From a candidate division FCPU426 bacterium (GTDB taxonomy: Bacteria; Oederibacteriota; JAAXVQ01; JAUVAV01): 64,000 nucleotides of DNA. The stretch lies in NCBI GenBank assembly GCA_030591525.1, contig JAUVAV010000008.1, positions 15,839 to 79,838 of the forward strand. Direction: 5' to 3'. Below are positions 8,505 through 61,792 of this stretch, one piece after another; the first letter of the stretch is position 1; the number at the start of each line of letters is the position of its first letter. The position numbers were made by a program, and so were the translations under genes. Below the pieces are notes generated by a model, which made no database searches, had not been told where the DNA came from, and was given only the letters and a program-made list of their open reading frames with translations.

Positions 8505-8632
8505 CTAGGAGTTTGAGCAATTGAAAATTGAACAATAGAAAATAGACCGCAATTGAGTTTTTTTATTGCTCTATTGTTCAATTTTCAATTGCTCAGAAAT
8601 AAAAAAATCAGACTAAATGCTCAGGCTCCTAT
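8505..8632. repeat. Family C miniature inverted-repeat element (variant copy) between the binding-protein gene and the permease gene
   Basis: Termini are CTAGGAGTTTGAGCAATTGA... and ...GACTAAATGCTCAGGCTCCTA, with an internal palindrome (aattgaaaattgaacaatag / ctattgttcaattttcaatt). They match the ends of the copies at 45685, 54633, 58511 and 61658. Confidence 0.8.
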
Positions 8633-9939
8633 GGCCTGGAAAAAAAATCCCGGTTTATCTGATAATTGAAATCCCGTATATAGGTCTCCAGGTCCAAATC
8701 CTTATCCACAAAAATGGCCTGGAGCGGTCCGTTATTCAACGCATCTTTGACTAAAATCCATTGCTCCAAATGCGGCTCATTGCGGACATATTGCAGTTCT
8801 TCCTTAACCATGGCGAATTCCGGCATATTTATAAGGTTGGCAGAAGCTGAAAAAGCCCCTGGAAATATCGTCATTTTCAACTCATTCATCCGTACCCATT
8901 TCCAGAGCTGATTGGCCGGAGAGATCTCAAATTCTATGTATTTCCAGGCAGCGGCCTGGCGTTCAGGAGAAATGGCGGAATTAATAATATACACTTTCCC
9001 GCCGGCATGCGAAGCCCGCAGCCCTCCGGGGCCGGCCGGCAAGGGAGCGATTCCGGCGGCTTTAAAATCCAATCCATATTTGTTAATCAGAGTGGGAAGT
9101 TGATTGGCCACCCCCATCATCATGGCCACGCGCCCCAGCGCGAACATCTGTGAAACGTCCTCATGGCTGGTTAAATCACTCGGCGGCAATACTCCGTACT
9201 TCAATTTCAAGTCCCGTAAAAACTCCAGCGTCTCGATCACCGGGGTGGTATCCAGAGTGGCCCGCCACCCGCCATGCGGAATACGCGCCACCAATTCTCC
9301 GCCGTTCTGCCAAACAAAATCCATAAAATTCCAGGTGCGGGACGGCCAGCCGAAACCGTATTGTCCCTTTTCGGGAAGCGTAAGGATTTCCGCGTATCGC
9401 ACCAATTCCTTCCAGTTGCGGGGCGGCCGTTCAGGATCCAGCCCGGCCCGGCGAAACAAGTCCTTACGGTAAAATAAAACCGTAAAATAAGTGTCCCGGG
9501 GTATCCCGTAAGTTTTCCCATCCACCCTGGCCGGCTGCCAGACCCTTTCGGGAATATAGTCCTTCTGATCCCAGTCCGTGATATATTCATCCAGAGGAGC
9601 AATAAAACCTTTGCGGGCCAATACGGGAAGAGTTCCCAGCCATATATGCATCACGTCCGGCCCTTTACCGCCGGCCATGGCGGTTATAAATTCCTGAGGT
9701 GAAAATTTACGTTCCAAACCCTTAATTTTAATGTCCGGAAATTCCTGTTCGAAACGCAGCAAGGTTTCCTTCCATAGTTTACGCGCTTTAACCTGCCGCG
9801 CGGAAGGTTTATTCCAGACCTCTAGAACCAGCCCTTCCCGGGGAAACTCGGTCACGAAATAGTAATTCTGTAACCAAACCGCTGCCATAAAAATGAATAA
9901 GCAGAACAGCCCTAAACTCCAGATTATCTTTTTAAGCAT
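8629..9939 (-). CDS. Extracellular solute-binding protein, family 1 (sugar ABC transporter substrate-binding protein)
   Basis: 436 aa. It has an N-terminal signal/anchor (MLKKIIWSLGLFCLFIFMAA) and family-1 SBP-like sequence. It is the first gene of the transporter operon. Confidence 0.8.
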   Translation of the reverse strand: MLKKIIWSLGLFCLFIFMAAVWLQNYYFVTEFPREGLVLEVWNKPSARQVKARKLWKETLLRFEQEFPDIKIKGLERKFSPQEFITAMAGGKGPDVMHIWLGTLPVLARKGFIAPLDEYITDWDQKDYIPERVWQPARVDGKTYGIPRDTYFTVLFYRKDLFRRAGLDPERPPRNWKELVRYAEILTLPEKGQYGFGWPSRTWNFMDFVWQNGGELVARIPHGGWRATLDTTPVIETLEFLRDLKLKYGVLPPSDLTSHEDVSQMFALGRVAMMMGVANQLPTLINKYGLDFKAAGIAPLPAGPGGLRASHAGGKVYIINSAISPERQAAAWKYIEFEISPANQLWKWVRMNELKMTIFPGAFSASANLINMPEFAMVKEELQYVRNEPHLEQWILVKDALNNGPLQAIFVDKDLDLETYIRDFNYQINRDFFSRP

Positions 9940-9990
9940 TCATAACCTTTCAACTTCATATTCATAAAAATCCGTGAAATTTATTCTATC

Positions 9991-10164
9991 CAGGAGCCTG
10001 AGCAATTAGTCCAGAATTCAAGTATTCCCCTCCCTTTTTGACGGGAGGGGACAAAGGGGAGGGTGATAAAAGTCTTTAAAAACGCACCCTCACCTAACCT
10101 CTCCCCTCAAGGGAGAGGAATTATTTATATTATATTAAAACCGACTAATTGCTCAAACTCCTAG
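9991..10164. repeat. Family C element with the same terminal inverted repeats (CAGGAGCCTGAGCAATTAGTC ... GACTAATTGCTCAAACTCCTAG) but a different 130-bp core
   Basis: The termini are shared with the other family C copies. The core contains its own inverted repeats (tcccctccc...gggagggg). The 3' sub-motif (gagaggaattatttatat...aaaccgactaa) recurs at 5557-5600. Confidence 0.75.
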
Positions 10165-10424
10165 TGCCGGGGCTTTTTACCCACGTGCCTGATTGCTTTG
10201 GTAAGCGCTACGACTACATCGGCATTAAATTGCTGTGCCATTTCCGCCACCCGGGTATAGGTGTGCCCCTTGTCCGTTACAACATACTTGGCCGGCAGAT
10301 GATTCAAGGCATAGGCTACTATATCCAGGCGGCAACGGCTGCACTTGCAGATACAATTTGTTTTATCCAATAATTCATCCAAAACATTTTGAACCGCGGT
10401 CTCCATATAATTCTTTAATTTCAT
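10161..10424 (-). CDS. comFB: ComFB-like late competence protein family (four-Cys motif)
   Basis: 87 aa. The pattern VxNVLDELL...CxCxxCxxDIxAxALNxLPxxY (CICKCSRCRLDIVAYALNHLPAKY) is characteristic of the ComFB family. Confidence 0.55.
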   Translation of the reverse strand: MKLKNYMETAVQNVLDELLDKTNCICKCSRCRLDIVAYALNHLPAKYVVTDKGHTYTRVAEMAQQFNADVVVALTKAIRHVGKKPRH

Positions 10425-10747
10425 GCTTCCTCCGTCCCCCGGTTTTTTACCATCCCTTAATACATCCCCGCGAATTCCCCGGGAAAATATACGCCTTGCT
10501 CCCTAATCATAGCGGAAATACTTTTCCGGGCCGTATTATATCATATAACTTTATTTTTTTTATAAAAAACATCTTTCCATTTATTTTTTTATCCCTCAAA
10601 TTTTCGCAATAAATTGACTAAAATTCTCTGATTAAATGGAAGATGTGTATGTTTTTTGTAGGGGGCAGGCCCCCTTGTCCTGCCTGTCCTGAGCGTAGCC
10701 GAAGGGTGTGCCTGCGCTGTATTATGTTTTTCGTAGGGGGCCGGCAC

Positions 10748-11122
10748 CTATTCTTTCTTCAGAATTTCTAAAACCTGCTCGCTCAGTTCGTAGGGATCGA
10801 AAGGCTTTATAATATAATCATCCGCACCGACTTTTAAACCCTGCATGGCATCTCCCCTCTGCCCTTTAGCCGTAAGCATAATCACTGGTATATGCCGGGT
10901 CGGGGTGTCGGCCTTGAGTCTTTGGCAGACTTCGAAACCGTTGATATCCGGCATCATAATATCCAGGAGAATAAGATCCGGCTTGGTACCCTGGACCTTA
11001 TCCAGAGCTTCCTGTCCGGAAAAAGCTTCGATAACCTCGAAATTCGCCAGCTCCAACGAAATTTTTACCAGTTTAACAATATCCGGTTCATCATCCACTA
11101 TCATAACTTTGTGTTTTTTCAT
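10748..11122 (-). CDS. Single-domain response regulator (CheY-like receiver)
   Basis: It has the DD...D...T...K receiver signature: VMIVDDEPDIV, LILLDIMMPDINGFEV, MLTAKG, DDYIIKPF. Confidence 0.85.
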   Translation of the reverse strand: MKKHKVMIVDDEPDIVKLVKISLELANFEVIEAFSGQEALDKVQGTKPDLILLDIMMPDINGFEVCQRLKADTPTRHIPVIMLTAKGQRGDAMQGLKVGADDYIIKPFDPYELSEQVLEILKKE

Positions 11123-11132
11123 TTCAACCTCC

Positions 11133-11417
11133 TCAGTTCCTGATCCGGTAATTATGACCTCTACCGCCTAGCGGAACTTCACGTGTCGTGTTGTCCCATA
11201 TCGCCTTGATAATCCGGCCGGAAGATACTCGGGTATCCCGGGCAGGCTCAAAGCAGGGTGAAGCCTCTAAAATCAGATTTTTAATTTCTTCCTTCCCCTG
11301 ACAATATTCCCCGGAAATTTCTTCCAGCATTTTAAAGCGAAAAATGCCTTTGCGCAATAATAAAAGGTTGCGCACCTTATGTTTAGGCTTGCCCGGGGGA
11401 TGACCGGTTCCCGCCAA
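11133..11417 (-). CDS. Hypothetical protein upstream of and co-directional with the receiver gene (start uncertain)
   Basis: The ORF ends 11 nt before the response regulator start. No motif was recognised. Confidence 0.25.
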   Translation of the reverse strand: MAGTGHPPGKPKHKVRNLLLLRKGIFRFKMLEEISGEYCQGKEEIKNLILEASPCFEPARDTRVSSGRIIKAIWDNTTREVPLGGRGHNYRIRN

Positions 11418-11501
11418 GCGGCCCTCCTGGGCTGATTAATTCCGGTTGTGGAAACGACAAATTCAAGCAACCTGAGCCAACCGCCAGGTTTTGAAGTGTC
11501 C

Positions 11502-11636
11502 GTCATTCCGGCATGGTTTTAGCCCTGGACTAAACTATCCCCTGGACTAATTCATCCCGGACAGGCAGGACAGGCCGGAATCCAGCGACTTTATAAGTAA
11601 AATCAGGCCTGGACCCCGGCTTTCGCCGGGGTGACG
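11502..11636. repeat. Family B element (GTCATTCCGGCATGGTTTTAGCCCTGGACTAAAC ... CCTGGACCCCGGCTTTCGCCGGGGTGACG)
   Basis: A near-identical copy lies at 41234-41343 and a shorter relative at 54511-54604. All begin with TGTCATTCCGGCATG and end with an inverted ...GGTGAC(G). Confidence 0.8.
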
Positions 11637-11805
11637 TAATGGGGATGCATTTGCCCGAAATTGCCTTTCCGCAATAGAAACTAATTAAGCTCCGAAAAAA
11701 CATTGCGCAAAATAACTGAATAACTGACCGGCTGTTTTTTTCTTTAAACTCTTCTATTTTTTAGTTTCGGATGAAAAATCAAGGAACTTGAGTCGCGGGG
11801 ATTCA

Positions 11806-12408
11806 CTATTTATAATAAAGGTTATGGCTGCGCAGATACCTGATTACCGGCTCCGGAACCAGGTAGCGTACCTCACGGCCGGTTCGGAGCAGTTTTCGGA
11901 TATTCGAAGCCGAGATGTCCAGCAGGCTGACCTGAAGAAAAATCGGTTCTTTACTCCATGACCGGAAGACCGGGGAGGCCGGTTTTCTTTTTACGGCTGA
12001 TATTTTCACTCCGGGACGCGAGATTACCACCAAACGGGCGTACTCGGAAATTTTATGCGGCTGGCGCCATTTATCCAGCTTGGCTATCTGGTCGATTCCC
12101 ACGATTAAAAATAATTCATTAAAAGGAGCTGAGCGGGCGAGTTCGGCCAGGGTATCCACGGTGTAGGATTTCCCGGCCCGCCGGATTTCCATATCCGAAA
12201 CCTCAAAAAGCGGATTATCCGCCACTGCCCGTTTGACCATGGCCAGACGGTGGGCCGCGGAAGCCTGGGGCGCACGGCGGTGCGGCGGACATCCGGCGGG
12301 AATAAACAGGACCCGGTCCAGTTCCAGTTTATCCGCCGCTTCCTGGGCGGCCCGTAAGTGACCTAGGTGAACGGGATCAAAAGTCCCGCCGAAGATTCCC
12401 ATGCGCAT
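11806..12408 (-). CDS. nadD: Nicotinate-nucleotide adenylyltransferase
   Basis: The (H/T)xGH motif is present (GIFGGTFDPVHLGHL). The start is chosen at MRMGIFGG. It follows proA as in the conserved obg-proB-proA-nadD arrangement. Confidence 0.85.
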   Translation of the reverse strand: MRMGIFGGTFDPVHLGHLRAAQEAADKLELDRVLFIPAGCPPHRRAPQASAAHRLAMVKRAVADNPLFEVSDMEIRRAGKSYTVDTLAELARSAPFNELFLIVGIDQIAKLDKWRQPHKISEYARLVVISRPGVKISAVKRKPASPVFRSWSKEPIFLQVSLLDISASNIRKLLRTGREVRYLVPEPVIRYLRSHNLYYK

Positions 12409-12424
12409 AGTTTCCGCCTTTACT

Positions 12425-13681
12425 CTATTCCCGTATCTGTCCCTGGCCGCGGACAATAAATTTCGTGGTTGTCAGTTCGCGAATCCCCATCGGTCCGCGG
12501 GCGTGCAGCTTTTGGGTGGAAATGCCGATCTCCGCTCCCAGGCCGAATTGCCCGCCATCCGTAAAACGCGTCGAGGCGTTTACCAGCACTGAGGAGGCGT
12601 CCACTTCGCGCAGCCAGCGTTCGGCATGCATATAATCCGAGGTAACTATCGCTTCCGAGTGTCCGCTTCCATACCGGTCGATATGTTCCATGGCCGCCGT
12701 CTGATCCTCTACCACGCGCACCGCTAAAATCAGGTCCAGGTATTCCGTTCTCCAATCATCCTCTTTGGCCGGTTGGGCGGCCGGATAAATTTCACGCGTA
12801 CGTTGGCATCCCCGCAGTTCCACTCCGGCCTCGTTAAAGCGGGATAGGAGGACCGGAAGAATCCGGGACGCAACCTCGGCATGCACCAGCAAAGTCTCAG
12901 CCGCATTGCACACCCCGGGACGCTGGAGCTTGGAATTAAGGGCGATTTTTTCCGCCATCGCCATGTCGACCGGCGAATCAATATAGACATGGCAATTGCC
13001 ATCGCCGTGGCGGATCACCGGAACCGTGGCCGTATGCGCCACCCACTGCAGGAATGATTTTCCGCCCCGCGGGATGACGCAGTCAATCAACCCTTCCAAA
13101 GTGATTAATTCGGTCACAGCCTGACGGTCAGTGGTCGCTACTACCTGAACCGCTTCGGCCGGTAGTCCGGCCGCCTGGACCGCTTCGGATACGCATTGCC
13201 CAATCGCCCGGCAGCTCCGGAGCGCTTCACTCCCGCCGCGCAGAATGACCGCATTCCCGGATTTAACGCAAAGCCCGGCGGCATCTGCCGTAACATTAGG
13301 CCGGGCCTCATAAACCATGCCCAGCACACCCAGGGGTACGCGCATTCGCCCCACGCGCAGGCCGTTAGGCCTTACCGTCTCCAACTCCACCTCGCCTATG
13401 GGATCCGGCAACCCCATCATCTCCCGCAGCCCTTTAACCATCTCTTGGATGCGCGTCTGGTTTAAGGTTAAGCGATCCAGCAAGGCGCCGGATATTCCCG
13501 CCTGCCGGGCAGCCGCCAGATCTTCCTCATTAGCCTTTAAAATTTCGGCCTGGCGGCGTTCAATAACTTGAGCCATATTCTGCAATGCCTGGTTTTTAGC
13601 CGCGGTTCCGGCGGCCGCCATTATTCTTGCCGCTTTTTTCGCTTTCCCGGCCATGGTTTGCAATTCTTCGCGAATGCTCAT
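12425..13681 (-). CDS. proA: Gamma-glutamyl phosphate reductase (glutamate-5-semialdehyde dehydrogenase)
   Basis: 418 aa of the aldehyde-dehydrogenase family with ProA-like sequence (NASTRFTDGGQFGLGAEIGIST). It lies in the proB-proA operon. Confidence 0.9.
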   Translation of the reverse strand: MSIREELQTMAGKAKKAARIMAAAGTAAKNQALQNMAQVIERRQAEILKANEEDLAAARQAGISGALLDRLTLNQTRIQEMVKGLREMMGLPDPIGEVELETVRPNGLRVGRMRVPLGVLGMVYEARPNVTADAAGLCVKSGNAVILRGGSEALRSCRAIGQCVSEAVQAAGLPAEAVQVVATTDRQAVTELITLEGLIDCVIPRGGKSFLQWVAHTATVPVIRHGDGNCHVYIDSPVDMAMAEKIALNSKLQRPGVCNAAETLLVHAEVASRILPVLLSRFNEAGVELRGCQRTREIYPAAQPAKEDDWRTEYLDLILAVRVVEDQTAAMEHIDRYGSGHSEAIVTSDYMHAERWLREVDASSVLVNASTRFTDGGQFGLGAEIGISTQKLHARGPMGIRELTTTKFIVRGQGQIRE

Positions 13682-13712
13682 GAATAACCTCCTACTCTAA
13701 TGTTGGCATGGT

Positions 13713-14840: not shown

Positions 14841-14911
14841 GTTTTTCTCCGAATATAATTTCAGCCGATTTTTTCCGCACGTAAATATTTAGTGCTGTTT
14901 TTCCCACGCGT

Positions 14912-14940
14912 TGTAGGGGCGACGCATGCGTCGCCCCTAC
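14912..14940. repeat. Family D palindrome TGTAGGGGCGACGCATGCGTCGCCCCTAC between obg and proB
   Basis: Perfect inverted repeat read directly from the sequence. Confidence 0.6.
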
Positions 14941-14981
14941 CGGTGATACAATAACCCACGGCCAATCTTTTACGCATTATA

Positions 14982-16268: not shown

Positions 16269-16334
16269 AAAAAACTCCTAAAAATAAAAAGAGCCCCAAG
16301 GCTTTCCTCGGGGCTCCGGAAAATATTTCAGATC

Positions 16335-16700: not shown

Positions 16701-16710
16701 GAAAAACCTC

Positions 16711-22773: not shown

Positions 22774-22806
22774 TTCTTTACTAATTGCTCAGACTTCTAT
22801 TCGCTC

Positions 22807-25290
22807 CTACTGTTTAATATATTTTTTATTCCTGGGATTATCGGGCCAGTGGTGTTTGGGGTATTTTCCTTCGAATTCTTTTTTAACTTCCGGATAGGTT
22901 TTCTCCCAAAAACTCTCAAGATCGCGGGTTAACTGCAGGGTGCGATTGGCCGGGCTGAGGATATCCAGCACCAATGGCTGATTGCATACAGTGGGTGTGG
23001 TCTGGCATCCGAAGAATTCCTGCAATCGCGCTGATAGTTTTGGGGTATCAGCGGTCTGGTAATTCAGGCTTTTCTTAAAGCCTGCGGCCAGGCGAATGAC
23101 TTCCGGCGCAAGTTCATTGAGCAGAGCTTGCTGCGCGGGTTTCAAATAACGTTTCAATCCATTAAGCAGTGATTGTTCGGTCCAGACATCACCACCGGTC
23201 CAGTTGCCGGCCGGTAATAACCATTGCCCGGCCTGGGCTAATAAGCGCTCTTCACTGAAAGCCGGCCAGTCCGGTTGGGTCCCCCATTTTTCTATAAAGC
23301 GGCAGCGGGCTAAATAACGTTCCGTCGCCGCGTTCCAGGGCAATTGGGAAAACCCTTTGGCGCCGAGTTTTTTCAATGCTTCTGCTTGAAGTACTTCTTT
23401 GGCAGGCAGACCGCCTGGTTCTTCTTTTAAAACAATGGAGCCGATTTTTATTTCTGACTTGCCTTTGGGTTTCCAGCCTTTCCAATCAATACGCCAGCAT
23501 TCTTTAACGGCAACCGCCGGACTGGCTAATAACTCTTTTTGCGTAATGGGAGCAGCTGAAAAGATTTTGGCGTTTTGCTGACCACCATCCAGATCGGCTA
23601 CCACCAAATAATCCTCTTGAGAGAGGCTGCCTGTGAGCAAACCACCTCTGCCGGTTGCCAGCAGCCACCGGGATGTAATGGGATCATCGCGCCGGGTCCG
23701 CTTGGCCAAGCGGTCGGGATAGGCAGCTAAAAGCAGACGGCCGATAACATGAACATTGATATGCAATGCTTTCGGTGCATGAACCTGTTTGCCTAGCGTG
23801 CGTAAAATACGGTAACATTCTTCCCAAATACGCTTTAACAAGCCTATATTGCTATGCGGTTCTTTACCATCGGACCAATCCTTAAATAGTTGAACTCTTT
23901 CACGAAAATCAGGATCTTTACGGGACAATAAATCATCGCTTTCCAATAAAGCGGCAATCAACGCAGCGGTATCGATAAAATTGGTATCCTTAAAAGTAAG
24001 GACCATTCTGGCTAAGCGGGGATGTATGGAAAATCGATTGGTGCGGCGGCCTAACTCGGTAATTTTGCCTTGAGCATCGAGAAGATCAAGCTCTTTTAAT
24101 AATCCCGTTGCCTGGGAAAGCGCGGCCGCCGGCGGCACTGTGAGCCAGGAAAGATCTGTCGGTGAAGCGGCTCCCCAGGCAGCGGTTTCCAGTACAAGTG
24201 GCGCCAGATCAGCTTCGGCTATTTCGGGAAGAGCAAAAGGTTCGCGAAAATCGGTTTCCTTCCACCAGCGAAAGCAAATGCCCGGGCCTAAGCGTCCGGC
24301 CCGGCCTTTGCGCTGCTCAGCCGAAGCCAGGCTGATGGGCAGTGTATCCCAGTGATCCATTCCCGTACGAGGTAAAAAACGCACCCGCCTTTCAAGACCA
24401 ATATCTACCACCGCTTTAACGCCGGGAATAGTGAGACTGGTCTCTGCCACATTGGTGGCAAGTATGATGCGGTGGTTATTGGCATTGGCAGGATCAAGCA
24501 CCACCCGCTGTTCCTGAGGCGGCATCTGTCCATGTAAAAGGTGAATAGCGTTTTTCAGGGCAGGACATTTTTCTCTCAAAATAGCATAGGCTTGATGCAT
24601 CTCATAGTAACCGGGCAAAAAACAGAGAATGGTGGCCGGTGAGTTTGATGACACGTGTTGTAGCGCTTCCCGGCTGAGCCGGGCAGCAGCCTGCCAGGGT
24701 TTTTCCTGGGATGAAACCGGTGGCCGGTAAAAAAGCTTTATGGGATGCACTCTGCCGGGTACTGCGATTAAGGGGAAGCCCGGGAAAACCTCTGAAATAT
24801 CTTTTGCCGGCAAGGTCGCAGAGAGCAGGGCGATTTTCAAATCCGGCCGCAGAAGTTTTCTGGTCTCCCAAGCCAGTGCCAGTCCCAGATCACCTTGCAG
24901 GCTGCGGGTATGAAATTCATCGAATAAAAGCGTACCATAGCCCGACAAGGCGGGATCATTCTGCAGCAAACGGGTCAGGACACCTTCGGTAACCACTTCC
25001 AAACGTGTCCGGGAACTTACCCGGGTCTCAAGACGGGTGCGAATTCCCACGCTCTGCCCGACGGATTCTGATAAAAAGGATGCGATTCTCTCCGCGGCCG
25101 CCCTGGCTGCCAGGCGGCGCGGCTCCAATAAAAGAATTTTCTCCTGGTTGCATTCGGGATGTTGCATTAATTTCCAGGGAAACAGGGTGGTTTTACCGGC
25201 ACCGGTCTCGGCCATGAGGAGAAGCAGGCCGTCTTTGAGAAATAATCCGGTAATTTCATCCAGCTTGGAAAATATGGGCAGCTTATCCAT
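22807..25290 (-). CDS. hrpB: ATP-dependent RNA helicase HrpB (DEAH/DExH-box)
   Basis: Motif I (AETGAGKTT), DEFH (LLFDEFHTR), SAT and QRKGRAGR are present. The protein is 827 aa with the HrpB C-terminal domain. Confidence 0.85.
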   Translation of the reverse strand: MDKLPIFSKLDEITGLFLKDGLLLLMAETGAGKTTLFPWKLMQHPECNQEKILLLEPRRLAARAAAERIASFLSESVGQSVGIRTRLETRVSSRTRLEVVTEGVLTRLLQNDPALSGYGTLLFDEFHTRSLQGDLGLALAWETRKLLRPDLKIALLSATLPAKDISEVFPGFPLIAVPGRVHPIKLFYRPPVSSQEKPWQAAARLSREALQHVSSNSPATILCFLPGYYEMHQAYAILREKCPALKNAIHLLHGQMPPQEQRVVLDPANANNHRIILATNVAETSLTIPGVKAVVDIGLERRVRFLPRTGMDHWDTLPISLASAEQRKGRAGRLGPGICFRWWKETDFREPFALPEIAEADLAPLVLETAAWGAASPTDLSWLTVPPAAALSQATGLLKELDLLDAQGKITELGRRTNRFSIHPRLARMVLTFKDTNFIDTAALIAALLESDDLLSRKDPDFRERVQLFKDWSDGKEPHSNIGLLKRIWEECYRILRTLGKQVHAPKALHINVHVIGRLLLAAYPDRLAKRTRRDDPITSRWLLATGRGGLLTGSLSQEDYLVVADLDGGQQNAKIFSAAPITQKELLASPAVAVKECWRIDWKGWKPKGKSEIKIGSIVLKEEPGGLPAKEVLQAEALKKLGAKGFSQLPWNAATERYLARCRFIEKWGTQPDWPAFSEERLLAQAGQWLLPAGNWTGGDVWTEQSLLNGLKRYLKPAQQALLNELAPEVIRLAAGFKKSLNYQTADTPKLSARLQEFFGCQTTPTVCNQPLVLDILSPANRTLQLTRDLESFWEKTYPEVKKEFEGKYPKHHWPDNPRNKKYIKQ

Positions 25291-29398: not shown

Positions 29399-30976
29399 CT
29401 ACTTTAAAATGGCTATTTTTTGCATGGGATGGACTGTTACCGCGCCGCTGGTCGTGGTTATCATCCGGCAGAAATAAATGCCCGGCGCGATCCCCTGCAA
29501 AGACCAGACCACAGCTTGGCCTGGATTGTCCTGCTTGACTTCCATCACCTGCTCTCCCAAAACATTGAACACCTTGATTTGTATGGACGTCACCCCAACG
29601 GTTTGCCAGGTGAAGCGGACCTCGTTTTGGGCGGGATTGGGATAGGCCAGGATGACCCGCGTGGATAATGCGCCTAGTACCGTCGGGGTCGGCGTGGGCG
29701 AAACCGTCGTGACTGGCGTGGATGAAACCGCCGGGGTCGGCGTGGACGAAACCGTCGTGACTGGCGTGGATGAAACCGCCGGGGTCGGCGTGGACGAAAC
29801 TGTCGTGACTGGCGTGGACGAAACTGTCGTGACTGGCGTGGGCGAAACCGTCGTGACTGGCGTGGATGAAACCGCCGGGGTCGGCGTGGACGAAACCGTC
29901 GTGACTGGCGTGGATGAAACCGCCGGGGTCGGCGTGGACGAAACCGTCGGAGTCGGCGTGGACGAAACTGTCGTGACTGGCGTGGACGAAACTGTCGTGA
30001 CTGGCGTGGACGAAACCGCCGGGGTCGGCGTATACGGCTTGGTATTGGCCGTGTATATCACCGTGTCCATGACCGTGCCGTCCGCCCGGATATGGCGCAA
30101 GGTGGCTTGGGCGCCGTTTACGCTGATTTCCGTGTATCCATAATAGGCGGGTTGCGCCTCATCGAACGAATAGGCGACCATATAGCCATTGTTGTCGTGA
30201 TTCTCGTCCACGGCGTACAGCGGCGCGCCGCCATTGCCTGTGACGATCTGTGCAGTGCCGGCGAGCGGATCGAGCGGCGGATTCTTGTCCCCGTTAAGGT
30301 CGAGTTTAAGCGTGCGAACGTAATAATGCGCATGCCCGGCAAAAATGACGTCACAGCCGCCTTGATACAGCGGTACGCCCCAGGTGGTGTGGAGGGTGCT
30401 TTCGTACACCTTGGGCCCGAAATCAAAGATCGGTGGATGCCAGATCGCGAACAGCCAGTCCTGCGGATTATTCTGAATGGCCTGCTGAAGCATGGTGTAT
30501 TGCGCACCGGTCAGGGACTCGTAGGGATTCAGAATGATGAAGCGGGCGTTCTCGTAATCAAAAGTAAAAAACGTGCCGTTGTTGCCAAATTGGCTGTTCT
30601 GGCCAGGCAGGTAAGTGTTCCAGTTGGCCAGCCCGGCCGGCACGGTAACTTGATCGTGATTCCCCGGCACGGACATATACTTTGGGGGAACCGCGCTCTG
30701 GCCAGTGCCACCCAGGGTCTCATTACAGGCTTGCTGCCAAATATTCCACTGGGACGCTTGCGTGCCGTCCTCAACCACGTCGCCCACGCTGATGATGAAG
30801 CAGTAGTCGGGCGTGTTGGCCTGGATGGCGTTGAGTACGCTGCGGTGAGCTGTATCGTCCGTGCGCGTGTCCCCGTATACCACGAATTTCCAGGGGGTCG
30901 CGGCCTGGGCTTGTGCGCCTGTTAATATCAGCAGCGCCAGCAGTGCCAGCGCCCTGGGTGTAACTTTCCTACGCAA
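29399..30976 (-). CDS. Secreted calcineurin-like metallophosphoesterase with a Thr/Pro/Val-rich repeat linker and a T9SS-type C-terminal sorting domain (CTD)-like tail
   Basis: It has a signal peptide (MRRKVTPRALALLALLILTGAQAQA) and metallophosphatase motifs (GDTRTDD, GDVVEDG, GNHD, AGHAHYY). The linker is (SSTPVTTV/SSTPTPAV)n. The tail has YPNPAQNEVRF...GIYFC...ILK. The start is TTG at 30976. Confidence 0.7.
   Translation of the reverse strand: MRRKVTPRALALLALLILTGAQAQAATPWKFVVYGDTRTDDTAHRSVLNAIQANTPDYCFIISVGDVVEDGTQASQWNIWQQACNETLGGTGQSAVPPKYMSVPGNHDQVTVPAGLANWNTYLPGQNSQFGNNGTFFTFDYENARFIILNPYESLTGAQYTMLQQAIQNNPQDWLFAIWHPPIFDFGPKVYESTLHTTWGVPLYQGGCDVIFAGHAHYYVRTLKLDLNGDKNPPLDPLAGTAQIVTGNGGAPLYAVDENHDNNGYMVAYSFDEAQPAYYGYTEISVNGAQATLRHIRADGTVMDTVIYTANTKPYTPTPAVSSTPVTTVSSTPVTTVSSTPTPTVSSTPTPAVSSTPVTTVSSTPTPAVSSTPVTTVSPTPVTTVSSTPVTTVSSTPTPAVSSTPVTTVSSTPTPAVSSTPVTTVSPTPTPTVLGALSTRVILAYPNPAQNEVRFTWQTVGVTSIQIKVFNVLGEQVMEVKQDNPGQAVVWSLQGIAPGIYFCRMITTTSGAVTVHPMQKIAILK
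29682..30040. repeat. Tandem ~30-nt periodic repeats (gtggacgaaaccgtcgtgactggc / gtggatgaaaccgccggggtcggc variants) encoding the TP-rich linker
   Basis: Read directly from the sequence. At least 12 units with two alternating variants. Confidence 0.85.
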
Positions 30977-31300: not shown

Positions 31301-32013
31301 TCATGTCACGAAGTCAAGGCGGGGAATTCGCGGTGACGTATTAAGATGCCTAAGTATCTTTTCTACGATTTCGCTGTCATCCAGCAAAGCTATTATTTTC
31401 ATCTCTCCACCACAAGCGGGAGAGATGAGAGGATCAACCTCCCAGATTTTTTTGATCAATTCCCGCCATTGCTTTGACGGCACTTGCGGTGCTTGGTATG
31501 CCGATATGTCTATTAAATTTTTGAGCATTTGAGCAGGTGATCAGTTGACCGCAGCTTTTCTACTGCTCTCCTGATCAACTGTTCGGCTGCTCTGATTTTC
31601 GCAAAGCGAAAATCAGGTATGTGCTGCGTTATCGCTCCTATGAATTCCCCTGCAGTAAATACTTTGAAGTTTCCTTTGACCTTGGGTTTTGGTTTGGAGC
31701 AGTATATCACACTTCCTGTCTTTTCATTATAAATCATCTTTTCTTCTGAAAATGGATTTCGAATTATATACTGTGCCAATCGTTCCAGGCCTGACCTTTC
31801 TTCCCTTTTGACCGGTTCTCCCTTATGCACACTGAAGCCGCTATGTTGCCAGGCACGCAGTTTCCTGGCTAAATCTTCTATCGGTCTCAAATAGCCATGG
31901 CTTTTTTCATACTTCTCTTTATAATGCTTAAGGTAATCGGCAAAGTGAGCATGCAAACATTGCCACAACTTTGTTCTTTTAGGCTGGCGGGGTTTATAGA
32001 CTTTTTCTTCCAT
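31301..32013 (-). pseudogene. Degraded IS91/ISCR-family (HUH Y2 rolling-circle) transposase, C-terminal portion only, frameshifted
   Basis: Two frames carry the fragments. Frame A (31513-32013) has LAQYIIRNPFSEEKMIY. Frame B (31301-31528) has the characteristic C-terminal zinc ribbon ..ISPACGGEMKIIALL.DSEIVEKILRHL. No HUH N-terminal domain was found upstream. Confidence 0.5.
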
Positions 32014-43977: not shown

Positions 43978-45270
43978 TTACCGCATTTTTCGCATTTTAC
44001 CTTCCCAAGCCAGCACTAACGCTTTATTGCCTCTTGATGCTTCAGAAATAACAGCAGACAATATTTGAGTTTCTGCACGATGAGTGCCAATATAACCGGA
44101 ACGAATCAGACCAACAATATCTGCTTCCCTCAAGTATATACCCTTCAAGGCATTATAACTCAAACGTATTCCACCTCTTGGCCCCGCGGCCACAGGAGAC
44201 TCCAGTATCTGATTTAAGTGGTGAAGGGAAATCACAAAAGACTGGCAGGAATCTTGTTCAACGCTTCTTTTCACAAATTTAAAGAAAAAAGGGTTACTAT
44301 TCAGACGGTAGTCTGATATTTTAGTTTTAAAATCCGGAAATTTCATCCTTTTAATTTCATTTTTTAACTGTTTATCAGGTCTAAACACCCAGTCTTTATT
44401 TCCGGATTCACTTCGCGCTTTTTCCAACATTTTATATTGGATCATAACAATATTTCCGCTGATTTCGTTAACATAGATCAGATCCACTCCAAACATCTTT
44501 TCCAAAGGCAACTTGTTCGCTGTATAAATCACGAGCCGTTCATCGCGCTTCTCGAAAACAGCCCTCCCCGTAATATCTTGTTCAATCGCATCAAACCCTG
44601 GCAGCTGGCAGGCATCTTTCCGAATAACATTGTCTTCATATAAATAAGATCCAATCGAGCTAACTTCTGACGCTGCATTTGTTTTTACTGCAACGTCGGT
44701 CGGGATTTGGTTTGCATGAAGACCGAAAGCTGACATTGCAGAACGAATGGCATTCTCCTGAGCCCAATTTATATTTGGAGTACGTACTAACTGAGGCAAT
44801 TGCTTAGCTGCGGTTTCCATTGCACTTTGATTTCTCTGGTCTTTTGCGAGCATATCTATCAATTGAACGCTCAACTTTGGCGTGAGCGCAGAAAAAAGAA
44901 CCTCGTCTGATATTTTTCTATTAAATAAGTTGCGAAAGCGGTTATTTGATAATTTTTGTCCAATTGCTTTAAGCGCAGAGGGCTTAATCAATCTGAGCTT
45001 TTTTATCGTTAGGCGAGAGTCAAAAGTGCTTACCGCTTTTTTTACCTTTGCAGTTCCAAGGTAACACTTGGTTTTGTTCTGCTCTTGAGTCTCCAGCAAA
45101 CATAATGTCGGCAGTTTAAAATCACCAAAAACCAAGTGTGATCGCGCAATGGTTAGATGCTCAAATCCTTGTCGCGACTCATTTAGAAAGTTTGATAATC
45201 CTTCATCAAACCTAATCAGAACAACAGGTTTCTTTTCAACCCACCTGGAAATTTCGTTTGCAATGTTCAT
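43978..45270 (-). CDS. Hypothetical protein with a C-terminal PD-(D/E)xK-like nuclease motif (candidate Shedu/DUF4263-like defence nuclease)
   Basis: 430 aa with no TM or signal peptide. The motif ..ERLVIYTANK..GVDLIYVNEISGNIVMIQYK.. has the spacing of the PD-(D/E)xK motifs II and III. ATG 45270 is preferred over the tool's TTG at 45276. Confidence 0.45.
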   Translation of the reverse strand: MNIANEISRWVEKKPVVLIRFDEGLSNFLNESRQGFEHLTIARSHLVFGDFKLPTLCLLETQEQNKTKCYLGTAKVKKAVSTFDSRLTIKKLRLIKPSALKAIGQKLSNNRFRNLFNRKISDEVLFSALTPKLSVQLIDMLAKDQRNQSAMETAAKQLPQLVRTPNINWAQENAIRSAMSAFGLHANQIPTDVAVKTNAASEVSSIGSYLYEDNVIRKDACQLPGFDAIEQDITGRAVFEKRDERLVIYTANKLPLEKMFGVDLIYVNEISGNIVMIQYKMLEKARSESGNKDWVFRPDKQLKNEIKRMKFPDFKTKISDYRLNSNPFFFKFVKRSVEQDSCQSFVISLHHLNQILESPVAAGPRGGIRLSYNALKGIYLREADIVGLIRSGYIGTHRAETQILSAVISEASRGNKALVLAWEGKMRKMR

Positions 45271-45684
45271 TAACAATACACTCCTTCAATTTCTCCGCCA
45301 TCTTCACTTTTCAGATAAATAACATTCAGGTCTATTAGCTTGCATTTGGCACCTAACCCTATTTCAACCATCCCGAGGAAGTCCTTAAAATGGTCTGCAA
45401 CATCATATCCACTGTTTGTACACATTTCTTTAGCTCACTCAATAACAGCGTGGTTGCATTCATCTCTGAATTCCCTGGAGCTTCTTCTTCATTTCCACCT
45501 TAACCCCAACCAGCTCTTTTTCCAGTGTATCAATTTCTGCTTCTTCCTCAAAAGGCTGAATTGTAACTCATATTGTGACAAATTCAACTCAAATTCCTTC
45601 TGCTATGTGTAAATTGCAAAACCATTTTATCAGCTAATTTATAGCCCAATATTTTATAGGAGACATGGTGCTTTCTCCTTTTTT

Positions 45685-45822
45685 CCAGGAGCTTGAGCAT
45701 TTAGTCTGCTTTTTGAGAGTAGATAGTAGAAAGTAGACCGCATTTGAGATATTTTATCTAATTTCTACTATCGAATCTCAAATGCTCTGAAGCCTGAGTA
45801 ACTAGTTGCTCAGGCTTCTAGG
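45685..45822. repeat. Family C miniature inverted-repeat element (canonical copy). Its right terminal inverted repeat overlaps the stop codon of the giant gene.
   Basis: The sequence is CCAGGAGCTTGAGCATTTAGTC-...AGTAGATAGTAGAAAGTAGACCGCATTTGAGATATTTTATCTAATTTCTACTATCGAATCTCAAATGCTC...-GAGCCTGAGTAACTAGTTGCTCAGGCTTCTAGG. Confidence 0.85.
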
Positions 45823-54223: not shown

Positions 54224-54510
54224 CAGGCCTCTCTTTGCTTTTTTAAAATATGCTCCTGTATTTTTTTGCAAACGCGGTAATAGAGAAATCCCATCACGCC
54301 TATGCAAAGTAAAACTATCAACCCTAAAACAATTTCCATTTTTCTATTCTCCTGTTTTTATTCAGATTAATTATAGCTTCTGTTGGTTAAGAAAATATTT
54401 CGGAAATGTGTTTTTTGTGTGAATATTTATCAGATGCTTTAGAGAGATCGCTGGAGAAAATACTAAATTGCACTAGTGTCGTGTTTCATAAGTACGTTGA
54501 ATTAATGTTT

Positions 54511-54604
54511 TGTCATTCCGGCATGCTCTAAGCCGGAATCCAGGGGCTTTGTCCTTGAAAAATAATGTTTTTCTGGGCCCCGGCTAAAATCATGCCAGGG
54601 TGAC
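54511..54604. repeat. Family B-related short element (TGTCATTCCGGCATG ... CATGCCAGGGTGAC)
   Basis: It shares the terminal inverted repeat of family B and is adjacent to a family C copy. Confidence 0.7.
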
Positions 54605-54632: not shown

Positions 54633-54770
54633 CTAGGAGCTTGAGTATTTAGTCAGTTTTTTGAGAGTAGATAGTAGAAAGTTGACCGCATTTGAGATAT
54701 TTTATCTAATTTCTACTATCGAATCTCAAATGCTCTGGAGCCTGAGCAACTAATTGCTCAGGCTCCTGGG
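54633..54770. repeat. Family C miniature inverted-repeat element between the giant gene start and the PHP-GT4 gene end
   Basis: About 95% identical to 45685-45822 and 58511-58645. Confidence 0.85.
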
Positions 54771-54777: not shown

Positions 54778-57159
54778 TTATTGTAAAACCTGATCCCGTT
54801 TTTGCTCCTCGCCGAATAAATTTCCCAGGCTCTTTTCCCAGGTGTATTTCCGCAGAACATTTTCGCGCGCCTTAGCCTGCATTATGGCAAAAGCTTTGGG
54901 ATGATTCTTTTTAATATCCAACAGTTTGTTTATTGCCAGGGTCCAGGCTTCCAGGTAATTGGCCGGCAAAACCATGCCGGTTTCCTGATGAATTACAATT
55001 TCCTTCGGACCACCTATGTTTGATACGACCGCCGGCAAACCGCAAGCTTGCGCTTCCAATACCGCCATACCGAAAGTATCCGTGGTGCTTGGAAAAACCA
55101 AAAGATCGGCGGAACAGTATAATTCCGGAAGAGCCTCCCGGGGCAAGCGTCCAAAAAATTTGATCCCCGGAATTTTAATATATTTACTTTTTAGCCTTTC
55201 CAGGCAAGGTCCGTCTCCGGCAATAATAAGCTGCATATCCGGATTAACTCCCGTTAATTCCTCGTAAATTTTGAACAGGAAATCAATATTTTTATCTTTA
55301 GAAACCCGGCCGGAGTATAAAAGCGTGGGTTTTACAGCCTTTTTCCCTCCAAACTTGCGCGTTTGAATTTCAGGCTTAAACACTGCCGTTTCCACAGCTT
55401 TATTATAGTATGCCAGTTTATGCAGCGGATAATTGCGTGCTTTAAGAATATCCAGATAGGCTTTGGTCGGCACTTTTATCTCATCCATAAGGGAATAGAA
55501 CCACTTTATATATTGTTCAACCGTGCCGGCCAAATCATCCTGTCCGCTGATTTGAATAATCTGCGAAGAAAAATCTGTATGGTAAATTCCAGAACATGGC
55601 AAATTCAGCAGCTTGGCTGCCAGCACTCCCAGTAAACCAATTGGCCCTGGCGCGGAAACAAGTATCCTGTCAGGTTCTGCCTGATAAATAAGTTCCACCG
55701 CTTTAAGCACTGACGGTATAAAAAGATAAAGATTTTCATAATACGGCAAAGAAAAGGTATGAAAATAAGGCAGTATAAGGGTGTTCGGCGGAAGGCAGGC
55801 TTTATCACTTTTAGCGTCTATCGCCGCAGCGATTTGCACCTCAAACATTTTTTCATGTGCCAGCCGGCCGGTTTGTTTAATCGTCTCCGCAACCCCGTTC
55901 ATGTCCAGCAGCGTATCCGTAAACCATAATATCTTTTTTCTGCCTTTCCGGGAAACCGGCACATACTCCCTTCGCATATGATTAATCATGGTCCGGCTGC
56001 GAAACATATGCCGCAAACTTGTAAAAAACGGGATTGAGATAAAAACCGCAGGAATTGCCGAGGAAACATCCCGGATTATCTTGCTGATATCACCCCTTTT
56101 AATGTCCTTTTCCAAGACCTTAAATAACTCCTTCAAAAAGCCATCCGCAGCATTGGCAATATATTGAAACATGATCTGAAACTTCCGCTCATAGTCATCC
56201 TTCCCCCCGCTTCTAAACTCTTCCATCAGCCTTAGGAACGCTTCCTGGCCTTCATCCTTGCTCTTTAACCACTTCCACCGGCTTAATGGCAGGCGGTCTT
56301 TCCAGGAAAACCTGGCTCCCTGGAAAAGGCTATTATGTAATTGTTCGAGCAAAGGCTGGGATATGATCAATTTTTTATCTTCAGAAAAATCGTAAGCTAT
56401 CTTGTATATAGTAAAAACAAAGGTCCGGTAATTATTATGGCGGCCGCCAACCGTGGTAAGTTTATCCTTCAAGCAGAAGAGGTATTCCTCCGGAGAGAAA
56501 GCACCGGCTGTGGTATGGGTCGCTCCAATGAAAAGACCGGCGTGATCATCGCTGCCTCCGGTTATACCCTTTACCCAGGAATCATCACTAATCGGGTTTA
56601 TGCCGTGTTTTTTCTGCAGTGTGGCCAGGCGCTCTGGCGTAAGATTTTTTAAAATTCCCATCCAGCCAAAGTTGCTCATTTTATCCCGGCTGCCGTTGAT
56701 TCCTTCAAAAATATCGAAAAGCAGAATCAGCTTTTCGAGGTGGCTCTGCGTCAGACGGTCGTTCACCGAATAAGCGGCATGCGCGACTGAATAGGCCAAA
56801 TCCCGGCGCTTAATATAATCGCGCAAGTTGTAGATGTTCTGCCGGAGCGAATCAATTTCTTCCCACTCCTGGCGGCTAAAACCGTAGATAAGCAAATGCA
56901 CTTTACACCCGTCTTCCGGGAAATAGGTAGTCGCCTCAACTCCGGTAAAGCAATCCTTTGGGTACTTATTTTTTAAATATAAGGCTCCCTCGATTTTATT
57001 GTGGTCAGTAAGCGTGACAAAACGCATGCCCTTGGCTTTGGCTTGGCAATAAACTTCATCCGGACTGGTATAGGATTCATAAGCCCCTAATTTCTTCAGG
57101 AACCAGTCCGCGGCATGACGCGAATGTATGGAATGAACGTGCAAATCGGCTTTGGCCAT
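54778..57159 (-). CDS. PHP-domain (polymerase/histidinol-phosphatase-like metallophosphoesterase) fused to a GT4 (group 1) glycosyltransferase
   Basis: The N-terminus carries the PHP signature (ADLHVHSIHSRHAAD...TDHN). The C-terminus carries the GT4 EX7E region (SADLLVFPSTTDTFGMAVLEAQACGLPAV). The protein is 793 aa. Confidence 0.7.
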   Translation of the reverse strand: MAKADLHVHSIHSRHAADWFLKKLGAYESYTSPDEVYCQAKAKGMRFVTLTDHNKIEGALYLKNKYPKDCFTGVEATTYFPEDGCKVHLLIYGFSRQEWEEIDSLRQNIYNLRDYIKRRDLAYSVAHAAYSVNDRLTQSHLEKLILLFDIFEGINGSRDKMSNFGWMGILKNLTPERLATLQKKHGINPISDDSWVKGITGGSDDHAGLFIGATHTTAGAFSPEEYLFCLKDKLTTVGGRHNNYRTFVFTIYKIAYDFSEDKKLIISQPLLEQLHNSLFQGARFSWKDRLPLSRWKWLKSKDEGQEAFLRLMEEFRSGGKDDYERKFQIMFQYIANAADGFLKELFKVLEKDIKRGDISKIIRDVSSAIPAVFISIPFFTSLRHMFRSRTMINHMRREYVPVSRKGRKKILWFTDTLLDMNGVAETIKQTGRLAHEKMFEVQIAAAIDAKSDKACLPPNTLILPYFHTFSLPYYENLYLFIPSVLKAVELIYQAEPDRILVSAPGPIGLLGVLAAKLLNLPCSGIYHTDFSSQIIQISGQDDLAGTVEQYIKWFYSLMDEIKVPTKAYLDILKARNYPLHKLAYYNKAVETAVFKPEIQTRKFGGKKAVKPTLLYSGRVSKDKNIDFLFKIYEELTGVNPDMQLIIAGDGPCLERLKSKYIKIPGIKFFGRLPREALPELYCSADLLVFPSTTDTFGMAVLEAQACGLPAVVSNIGGPKEIVIHQETGMVLPANYLEAWTLAINKLLDIKKNHPKAFAIMQAKARENVLRKYTWEKSLGNLFGEEQKRDQVLQ

Positions 57160-58083: not shown

Positions 58084-58510
58084 TACATCAAAACCGGCAT
58101 AACCGCAACCCTCCTGTCAGCCATGCAAACTGTGATGCATCAGGCACCAGGTCAGGAGTTGGGCCCGGCGTTCGTCTTCCAACCATGTAAGAAAGGTCTC
58201 CGGTTTTCCCATTCTGCGCTCCCCGGGATTTTCAGCTGCGGGCCGAGGTTTATTTTTGGATTTGTCTCGGCGCGGCAGAGGACGCGTTTTCGGCCCGTCC
58301 GGCCGGCAGCGGCTCAACGGTCGGCCACTGGGATAAAGATCCGTTCTTGTCCGCAATTTTCGCAAATCCGGGCAATCCATAACCGGCATGGTGTTTTTCT
58401 CCTTTCAATATTTTTGCGAAGTATAGCAGAACTCAGATAATGTTTCCGTAAGGAGGATGTTAGAATTGGATAATATTTTACGGGTATAATTGATTGGATT
58501 TATAGACGTA

Positions 58511-58645
58511 GGGGGCTGAGCAATTAGTCGGTTTTTTGAGAGTAGATAGTAGAAAGTAGACCGCATTTGAGATATTTTATCTAATTTCTACTATCGAATC
58601 TCAAATGCTCTGGAGCCTGAGCAACTAATTGCTCAGGCTCCTAGG
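58511..58645. repeat. Family C miniature inverted-repeat element between the TIM-barrel and ClC genes
   Basis: It ends in GAGCCTGAGCAACTAATTGCTCAGGCTCCTAGG, which is itself a perfect 12-bp-stem hairpin. Confidence 0.85.
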
Positions 58646-60507: not shown

Positions 60508-60583
60508 CGCTTTTCTCTCACCATTTTTATTTCTGGTAATCCAGATGCTCGCAACGCGTCCGGACAGCGGTTTCCACGCCGGG

Positions 60584-61618
60584 TTAAACCACGACTTTCA
60601 ATGCCCGGGCTACCACCTTGATTTTCAGCGGCATACGGCCAAAATAGTCGCCGTCTATCTGGACATGCTGTTTCCGGTCCAGCACTTCAATTTTTCGGCA
60701 CTGTGAATATTCCACGTCCAGAAATTTGCCCAAGGCTCCGAGACGCAAACCCCAAAAGTAGGCCAAAAAACTGAAAAACCCCCGCTTTTTAAAAACACAG
60801 ACGTCCAACAAACCATCCTGCATATTCGCGTGGGGCAGGAGCACCGTATTGCCGCCGTAATACTTGATGTTTCCGATGATTAATAAATAACCTCTTTGAA
60901 TCGGCGCCTGGCCGTCAATCCGGAAATGCACATGTCGAAACGGGTACACAAATAAGCTGGCAACTCCGGCCACCAGGTAGGCCAGGGCCCCGATGATTTT
61001 TTTGAGCTTCCAATCAGTCTGTTTGATTACAAACGCATCAAAACCTACGCCCGTCCAGCAGGTAAAATACCGATTATCGACCTTTCCCAGATCAATGGTG
61101 ATTTGTCTGCCCTGGGCGATTCGCTGACAGGCGCCCGGTAAATCAGCGGGAATTTTCATTTGCAGGCCGAAGATGTTCGCGGTTCCGGTAGGGATGACTC
61201 CCATGGCGGTTTGGGAACCTGCCAGTCCGTTGGCAACGGCATTGATTGTACCGTCCCCCCCGGCCACAATAACCAGAGCATAATTTTCCCGGGCGCAATA
61301 ACGGGCCATGGCCGTGGCGGCAGCAGGCGACATGATCGTAGCCGGTTCAGGATCAATGCCGTGGACTTGAAGTTGTTTGAGGATTTTCCTCAGGTGTTCT
61401 CCCGGGCGAGTGATCTTGAACAACCGTTTTTTCTTATCGGGGAATAATAAATTCGAAAAAAGCGGCAGGATCAATCCCGAGCCGGATCGGGGATTAAAGA
61501 TCAGCTTTATTTTCGAGCTCTTCTTGGCCGCAGGGGATCCGGATTTGCGGCGAGGAGAAGATTTATGAATAATTTTTTTTTTGATCGGTTTTTTTTCTAA
61601 CATATTCATCTCCTGCAA
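60584..61618 (-). CDS. Diacylglycerol-kinase catalytic-domain lipid kinase (YegS/BmrU/DagK family) with a Lys-rich N-terminal tail
   Basis: DAGK_cat motifs are present (LIFNPRSGSG ... VIVAGGDGTINAVANGL). The N-terminal 40 aa are K/S-rich. Confidence 0.75.
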   Translation of the reverse strand: MQEMNMLEKKPIKKKIIHKSSPRRKSGSPAAKKSSKIKLIFNPRSGSGLILPLFSNLLFPDKKKRLFKITRPGEHLRKILKQLQVHGIDPEPATIMSPAAATAMARYCARENYALVIVAGGDGTINAVANGLAGSQTAMGVIPTGTANIFGLQMKIPADLPGACQRIAQGRQITIDLGKVDNRYFTCWTGVGFDAFVIKQTDWKLKKIIGALAYLVAGVASLFVYPFRHVHFRIDGQAPIQRGYLLIIGNIKYYGGNTVLLPHANMQDGLLDVCVFKKRGFFSFLAYFWGLRLGALGKFLDVEYSQCRKIEVLDRKQHVQIDGDYFGRMPLKIKVVARALKVVV

Positions 61619-61657
61619 TCCAGATGCTCCTAATACGTCGAGTTCGTTTAGTTAGTT

Positions 61658-61792
61658 TAGGAGTTTGAGCATTTAGTCGGTTTTTTGAGAGTAGATAGTA
61701 GAAAGTAGACCGCATCTGAGATGTTTTATCTAATTTCTACTCTCGAATCTCAAATGCTCTGGGGCCTGAGCAACTAATTGCTCAGGCTCCCA
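61658..61792. repeat. Family C miniature inverted-repeat element immediately 5' of the lipid-kinase gene
   Basis: It has the same terminal inverted repeats and core as the other copies, with a few substitutions. Confidence 0.85.

Follow-up and report, generated by a model that had tools for sequence, protein, structure and literature searches.

A probable family of miniature transposable elements with IS1182-type ends in a candidate division FCPU426 bacterium

[quoted passage not shown] MITEPsy1 of Pseudomonas syringae (ISPsy2, IS5 family) is 100 nt long, was mobile in experiments and duplicates 'CTAG or YTAA' (PMC3189936). IS1272 of Staphylococcus, a member of the IS1182 family, moves by stem-loop-replacing transposition (PMC5678879), and for the Correia elements of Neisseria, promoter creation, binding of IHF and cleavage by RNase III have been demonstrated (PMC2649163). 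Here we describe a repeat family, which we call Family C, in a 64,000-nt stretch (the window) of contig JAUVAV010000008.1 (GCA_030591525.1) from a candidate division FCPU426 bacterium. Family C is very probably a MITE family with IS1182-type ends, which inserts at CTAG, sometimes at CTAA, and often exactly on stop codons.

The terminal repeat and its full-length counterparts

Both strands of the window were searched for the 21-nt terminal inverted repeat TAGGAGCCTGAGCAATTAGTC. Thirteen matches with no more than three mismatches were found, where 100 dinucleotide-preserving shuffles gave an expectation of 0.00. Inward-facing pairs of the repeat delimit six elements of 125–173 bp (four of type 1, one of type 2 and one of type 3), and two further ends stand alone. 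The type-1 copies are 135–137 nt long, have pairwise identities of 90.4–94.1% and are 93–94% identical to the reference copy. The open reading frame (ORF) listing reports no internal ORF within the window elements, which are non-coding. An earlier note on this DNA had listed the copies and fragments, and the repeat matches lie within 2 nt of its coordinates. The nested inverted repeats that it saw in the core are real, its variant copy at 8505 is a diverged homologue of the same core, and the copy at 9991, which it described as sharing the termini with a different core, does have an unrelated one. It had counted one copy overlapping a stop codon; the correct number is three ends (45818–45820, 8629–8631 and 10161–10163). 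The elements and solo ends are as follows.

45686..45822 (+): type-1 MITE copy, 135 nt between TA dinucleotides, with the left repeat at 45686–45706; the core has hairpin arms at 45712–45737 and 45757–45782 (88% complementary); at the right end, an internal extra repeat copy and the right repeat form a hairpin at ~45789–45820; the terminal CTA at 45818–45820 is the TAG stop of a 2829-aa ORF (−).
54634..54770 (+): type-1 MITE copy, its right end 8–10 nt downstream of the stop of a glycosyltransferase gene, 54778..57159(−).
58509..58645 (+): type-1 MITE copy, 25 nt downstream of the stop of a CLC channel gene.
61658..61794 (+): type-1 MITE copy, 40 nt upstream of the start codon of a diacylglycerol-kinase-like (DAGK) gene.
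8505..8631 (+): type-2 MITE, homologous to the type-1 core but diverged from it; it lacks the internal extra repeat and contains a perfect 26-bp stem (8514–8539/8570–8595). On one side it is bordered by the stop of a solute-binding protein (SBP) gene (8629–8631, within the element end), on the other by the next permease gene's ribosome-binding site.
9991..10163 (+): type-3 element, which shares the terminal repeats of the others but has a core of other short palindromes, unrelated to theirs; its terminal CTA at 10161–10163 is the TAG stop of an 87-aa ComFB gene.
5548..5600 (+): solo right end, repeat at 5580–5600 with 1 mismatch, preceded by ~25 nt of type-3 core; no left end partner was found for it.
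22779..22799 (+): degenerate solo right-hand repeat with 3 mismatches, 8 nt downstream of the stop of an HrpB-like helicase gene, 22807..25290(−).

Scanning one genome per species for the end pattern ACTAAWTGCTCARRCTCC returned at least 94 loci (loci outside the window are given below by L numbers). In a Dehalococcoidia metagenome-assembled genome (MAG), at least seven identical IS copies have their two ends at a distance of exactly 1762 bp, and at L007 767–4288 (Dehalococcoidia MAG CBDFKS01) two identical 1762-bp ISs stand head to tail with a single common CTAG. The transposase frame of every copy is open up to the TAG of the element's own terminal CTAG. The encoded protein scores 399.8 bits against the NCBIfam model NF033551, 'IS1182 family transposase' (cutoff 270), and contains the Pfam domains DUF772, DDE_Tnp_1_6 and DDE_Tnp_1. 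Homologues of it, 68% and 67% identical, are encoded by a 2039-bp IS in an Elusimicrobiota MAG (L116) and by a 1753-bp IS on an ENA contig (L117), and both of these ISs have the same 21-nt ends. The two homologues have the same Pfam families on record, and that of L116 is annotated 'IS1182 family transposase'. Since the ends of Family C are identical to those of full-length ISs, the terminal repeat is the conserved end of a widespread subgroup of the IS1182 family (IS5-related, DDE). The MITEs would then be mobilised in trans: a transposase of this subgroup, encoded elsewhere, would recognise the two outermost repeats and excise or copy the element between them.

Target site, mobility and stop codons

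Relatives of the host provide empty sites for two of the window elements. Locus L095, 93% identical at the nucleotide level across the CLC gene, does not have the copy at 58509–58645 and carries the empty site ATAGACCTAGGGGA (...GACCTAGGGGA...), where the filled site of the window reads ...ATAGACG, then TAGGGGGCTGAGC...GGCTCC, then TAGGGGA.... Locus L115, with 95–98% identity, does not have the copy at 8505–8631, and its empty site is CCAGGCCCTAAGGGAGC (...GGCCCTAAGGGAGC...; ...CCAGGCCCTAAGGGAGCATCGAGATG...); in gene orientation the filled site of the window reads ...CCAGGCCATAG, the element GAGCC...AACTC, and CTAGGGGAGTATCGAGATG.... The solute-binding protein ends in ...FSRP-stop in both relatives, so the element entered exactly at the stop codon, 14 nt before the next ATG, and the stop was regenerated. 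L095 is also without the copy at 61658–61794, and there the DAGK gene (60584..61618) is missing as well (60560–61969 compared with L095 1330–1471); the CLC gene comes next after the M50 peptidase gene, with a spacer of 300 nt between them. In the window, the CLC and kinase start codons are each preceded by a leader-like direct repeat of 50 nt (60511–60560 and 61590–61639, 70% identical). Exact-protein look-ups of window genes gave no site that was empty of the 45686, 54634 or 61658 copy by itself.

Among the matches listed, the base that follows the terminal TA is G in 93 of 111 non-redundant ends (84%), with no preference farther out, and adjacent elements, like the tandem ISs, have one CTAG in common. 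Together with the empty sites, where the target is CTAG in L095 (the 58509 copy) and CTAA in L115 (the 8505 copy), these observations identify the target as CTAG (or CTAA). Integration at this target duplicates either TA or CTAG; the two lengths, 2 and 4 nt, are indistinguishable because the element starts with G and ends with C. The target-site duplication that the earlier note had proposed to look for is thus borne out by two empty sites. We also considered whether the target is a wider palindrome or a hairpin, as it is for IS1272, and rejected this, as the flanks have no preference beyond the G after TA. An eight-fold depletion marks CTAG itself: base composition predicts 249 occurrences in the window and 29 are observed, six of which lie at or in Family C ends. 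The tetranucleotides TCGA, GTAC and ACGT are low in the window too, and CCGG is three-fold enriched. With two filled/empty pairs and an extra copy in L115, the family is recently active enough to be polymorphic among relatives that are 93–98% identical.

The repeat, read inward, contains TAG at positions 1–3, TGA at 9–11 and TAG at 17–19, one per frame, so that all three inward frames are stopped within the first 19 nt of each end. Counting all loci, among the matches listed, 41 ends supply the stop of an open frame of 80 codons or more, 21 of them with the terminal TAG, 11 with the TGA and nine with the inner TAG. Three window genes stop on a terminal TAG: those of the 2829-aa ORF, the solute-binding protein and the 87-aa ComFB protein. 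Outside the window, a DUF5320 gene in an FCPU426 MAG (L082) likewise stops on the terminal TAG, and a lipid A acyltransferase gene in L092 stops on the repeat's TGA. As CTAG contains TAG and is rare, C-TAG stop codons are natural targets, and copies lie on or just after stops. Given the stops in three frames, an insertion would change no more than a few residues of the upstream protein and would be tolerated, even inside operons. Insertions at gene ends would thus be nearly neutral, and neutrality rather than function probably explains the positions.

Composite interiors and alternative explanations

The same ends enclose, among the matches listed, non-coding interiors of 45–372 bp of many unrelated kinds, in the unclassified MAG CBDUZI01 (dozens of copies), Elusimicrobia MAGs, FCPU426 and Firestonebacteria. 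Paired left and right ends are found in the six window elements and in at least about 35 elements of other loci. Minimal elements consist of two repeats back to back; one of 48 bp stands alone in L064, and one of 45 bp starts the composite of L027. Other elements, including some in CBDUZI01, enclose palindromic modules of the form 'GTCATTCC...GGAATCCAG'. They are present in the window too, at 11498–11636, 41231–41343 and 54508–54560, where they lack Family C ends and form a second palindromic repeat family (GTCATTCCGGCATG...CCGGAATCCAG...GACCCCGGCTTTCGCCGGGGTGACG). The intergenic spacers hold further short palindromic repeats, at 955–978, 5650–5673, 5416–5547, 61837–61960 and 31183–31279; examples are GTAGGGGCGTTTAATTAAACGCCCCTAC and a 130-nt unit that is 92% identical to one in an FCPU426 MAG (L019), and one further unit occurs in the relatives L095 and L115 as well. 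A metagenome-wide scan for the type-1 core CARAGCATTTGAGAKTCGA gave 13 matches, all of them chance and none with the terminal repeat, and so added no copies.

Aligned in gene orientation, type 1 (five copies, 90–96% identical), type 2 (window 8505, L027, L115 and, truncated, L082) and a 220-nt relative in L092 are homologous. Their layout begins with the outer repeat and an inner, reversed repeat copy, with a 13-bp hairpin between them (GGAGCCTGAGCAA/TTGCTCAGGCTCC). L027 and L115 have the whole of the inner copy, type 1 has a trimmed one and the 8505 copy has none. It is followed by a 5'-truncated repeat (AGAGCAWTTGA...), a 26-bp stem with the conserved CTCAAWTGCGGTCTA in its loop, and the distal repeat. 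From this order of parts, we read the 135-nt type 1 as a composite, in which a minimal two-repeat element was fused to a 5'-truncated neighbour with the long hairpin and the whole then spread as a unit by means of its outermost repeats. The long stem is complementary at 23 of 26 positions in type 1 and at 26 of 26 in type 2, while its arms are identical between the types at only 18 of 28 positions. The repeat/repeat' hairpin has compensatory changes at three of 12 pairs; in another count the figure is four of 21.

The spacer between the ComFB and SBP genes shows how interiors can differ between fixed ends. The outer ends occupy the same positions in the window and L114, L115 and L027, and all of these share site-specific variants, GTTTGAGC on one side and CTCCTG on the other. 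The interior is the type-3 core in the window and L114, a minimal hairpin plus type-2 core in L027 (a composite of ~130 nt), and the same as in L027 with an additional nested repeat of ~110 nt in L115. The two target copies at this site differ (TA vs. TG) in all three lineages. The conserved ends and the TA/TG difference indicate one ancestral insertion whose interior was later replaced, and the core exchange for which the earlier note had argued is therefore supported. Interiors can thus be replaced in place between conserved ends, and the swap could have occurred by recombination between repeats or by an IS1272-like replacement of a resident palindrome. It is possible, if unlikely, that IS1182-type elements use resident MITE hairpins as targets and replace their interiors, as reported for IS1272, with the gene end as docking site, and that the hairpin-first orientation and the stem maintenance reflect use by the host as mRNA structures at 3' ends or between cistrons. 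If this were true, fixed ends at a gene's stop codon would be a reusable docking site with its cargo turning over. In-place core replacement is the one aspect of Family C that could repay experimental work; the interplay of the CTAG target, stop codons and the repeat's stops in three frames also merits attention.

Several observations weigh against plain MITEs. Compared with the three full-length ISs, the MITE does not align past the 21–22-nt repeat, so the MITEs are not simple internal deletions of these particular ISs; a closer parent IS may exist in the host lineage. Descent through the motif CAATAG...AGACCGC, present in the type-2 core and at the transposase-distal end of the Dehalococcoidia IS, was considered and dropped, as the motif is absent from the other two ISs. 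An IS1182-type transposase was found neither in the 64-kb window nor in the 8-kb loci of the host's relatives. The hairpin itself is maintained, as the paired changes in its arms show, unlike what plain selfish decay would predict. Lastly, six of seven gene-end copies have the hairpin end beside the stop, which hints at selection for orientation, although the bias (L092 is the exception) is not significant (two-sided binomial p ~0.13).

The last two of these points lend themselves to a different explanation, in which the element is primarily an RNA or DNA structure with a function, retained by the host, and its transposon-like ends are secondary. It would be a hairpin between cistrons or in a 3' untranslated region that stabilises the upstream mRNA, is cut by RNase III or attenuates read-through; in a weaker form, only some copies have been exapted. 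The fold is indeed far more stable than shuffled controls (− strand, −55.1 kcal/mol, z −8.8; + strand, −60 kcal/mol, z −7.6), but its stability is about the same on the two strands. Compensatory changes in the repeat/repeat' hairpin and between the long stems of types 1 and 2 are consistent with selection on the structure, but matched changes are also expected if both arms fit one transposase, and stem maintenance could equally come from arm-to-arm correction. The type-2 copy, between the solute-binding-protein and permease genes, sits in the classic place for a stabilising hairpin, but the element is absent at two sites in close relatives, a type-1 copy lies in a divergent promoter region (L115 1565–1703), and in L092 the neighbouring gene comes in from the opposite end. 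The window has no Rfam match at the gathering threshold, and a permissive search gave only generic microRNA hairpin models far below threshold. Neither strand of the type-1 or type-2 element contains a hairpin-plus-T-run terminator, and promoter-like matches are at chance level. The earlier note's other possibility, a structured RNA that serves as terminator or processing site between cistrons, thus finds no positive support. A host-kept structure is a distinctly unlikely explanation of the family. A secondary effect on mRNA, like that of REP sequences in malE-malF or of Correia elements (PMC2649163, PMC10969869), may by analogy accompany the MITEs, the type-2 copy being the most suggestive case.

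Short palindromic units downstream of genes also bring to mind REP/REPIN-type palindromes, which are moved by RAYT, an IS200/IS605-like tyrosine transposase, and not by a DDE enzyme. In favour of this, the repeat/repeat' hairpin looks like a REP doublet, and GTAGG is the sequence at one left end (58508–58512). We regard this origin as very improbable: the same 21 nt end complete ISs that encode an IS1182-family DDE transposase, the target is duplicated here and not in REPs, and the scanned window ORFs include no Y1 transposase, the sole tyrosine-type match being an unrelated Y2_Tnp fragment (31513..32013). The chance that the copies are integron attC sites marking cassettes, or a collapsed-repeat assembly artefact, is negligible: they are imperfect palindromes in one orientation after co-directional genes and short-read contigs break inside them, but the neighbouring genes, among them those for the CLC channel, M50 peptidase, ABC transporter and 2829-aa ORF, are large or of housekeeping type and in part syntenic in relatives without the element, no integrase is among the scanned window ORFs, the ends read CTAGGAGCC...GGCTCCTAG (CTAG/GAGCC) and not as RYYYAAC...GTTRRRY core sites, and copies that differ by 6–10% between unique flanks are reproduced by independent assemblies.

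The MITE reading is supported by the IS-identical ends, the two empty sites, the duplicated CTAG target and the many copies and cores, in agreement with the earlier note, which had offered a non-autonomous element as one of its possibilities. CRISPR repeats and tRNA or rRNA fragments, which it had named as contrary outcomes, are both rejected. That it recognised no described element is borne out for the sequence but not for the kind, which is known: what is new is the sequence itself, from little-studied phyla, and what is known is selfish DNA of the MITE type.

Genomic setting and comparison with known systems

The window is ordinary chromosome, with obg, L27, proline and biotin genes, a Pst/PhoU phosphate system, TonB/ExbBD and ABC transporters. 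Positions 9199–18236 align to an 8-kb stretch of a 'Candidatus Firestonebacteria' MAG (L027) in five blocks of 85–89% nucleotide identity. The best match of the CLC protein is 96% identical, and the next homologues, two of them from FCPU426 MAGs, are 65–73% identical; more distant CLC-channel homologues (70–73% identity, L096–L100) have no synteny with the window and are uninformative. Exact-protein look-ups of window genes led mostly to the same organism (L114, 99.8–100% identical to the window; L118–L120, 100%). An independent JGI contig carries the type-2 and type-3 elements in context, 99.8–100% identical, and contigs assembled from short reads of the same samples are broken within the element, L118 beginning at window position 58546.

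Other features of the window lie outside the family. On the − strand, a 166-aa ORF at 31513–32013 matches Pfam Y2_Tnp and looks like a fragment of an IS91-type transposase; 75-nt direct repeats (31093–31167 and 34558–34632, 97% identical) flank this area. The ORF 29399..30976(−) has a calcineurin-like phosphoesterase domain and a Por-secretion C-terminal sorting domain, and contains a 24-nt tandem repeat of at least 13 units (29631–30079). Neither the 2829-aa ORF (45818–54307, −) nor the ORF that follows it (43978..45276, 432 aa) has a Pfam match at E ≤ 0.001. At 3821–4623 (+), a HEPN-domain ORF and a minimal nucleotidyltransferase ORF are adjacent with a 34-nt overlap, as in HEPN/MNT toxin-antitoxin pairs.

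Family C gives a checkable annotation for a repeat that litters spacers in Firestonebacteria, FCPU426 and Elusimicrobia and breaks short-read assemblies, and connects it with one particular subgroup of transposases, the 21-nt end of which is conserved across phyla. As a natural example it is a clean one: the rare palindromic target, CTAG, coincides with stop codons, and stops in three frames would render insertion at a gene end harmless. Gene calling should profit from this, as several stops fall within element ends, and so should any consideration of CTAG avoidance.

Among described systems, the IS1182-paired MITEs (PMC3852290) are alike in being non-coding and multicopy, 160–169 bp long, with 25–26-nt terminal repeats in common with IS1182-family ISs, and the 4-nt direct repeat reported for one of them fits a CTAG duplication here. 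The ISMac2 MITEs differ in sequence and in host, an archaeon as opposed to candidate bacterial phyla. In contrast to them, Family C has its partner IS seen only in other lineages, highly diverse cores, and one form with a third, internal repeat. MITEPsy1 has the same target (for Family C, CTAG at 58509, CTAA/CTAG at 8505 and, in 84% of ends, G at +1), but its terminal repeat, GGAAGGTCTGAAAAAGCC, is unrelated, and its mobility was established experimentally, whereas that of Family C is inferred from empty sites. IS1272 belongs to the same IS family and inserts immediately downstream of genes. Its variants with one side of the terminal repeat duplicated parallel the internal extra repeat of type 1, and its replacement of a resident palindrome between fixed flanks resembles the core swap at 9991–10163. 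Unlike Family C, which targets and duplicates CTAG with no wider palindrome in the flanks, IS1272 uses varied hairpin targets and makes no target duplication. Correia elements (PMC2649163) and the RUP, BOX, ERIC and REP repeats (PMC2229807, PMC3184786, PMC10969869) are similar in size (100–160 bp), in their terminal inverted repeats and TA-containing target, in their abundance in intergenic and intercistronic spacers, in the long hairpins that they form when co-transcribed, and in nested or adjacent insertion. They have no sequence similarity to Family C, which differs from them further in having an identifiable cognate transposase family.

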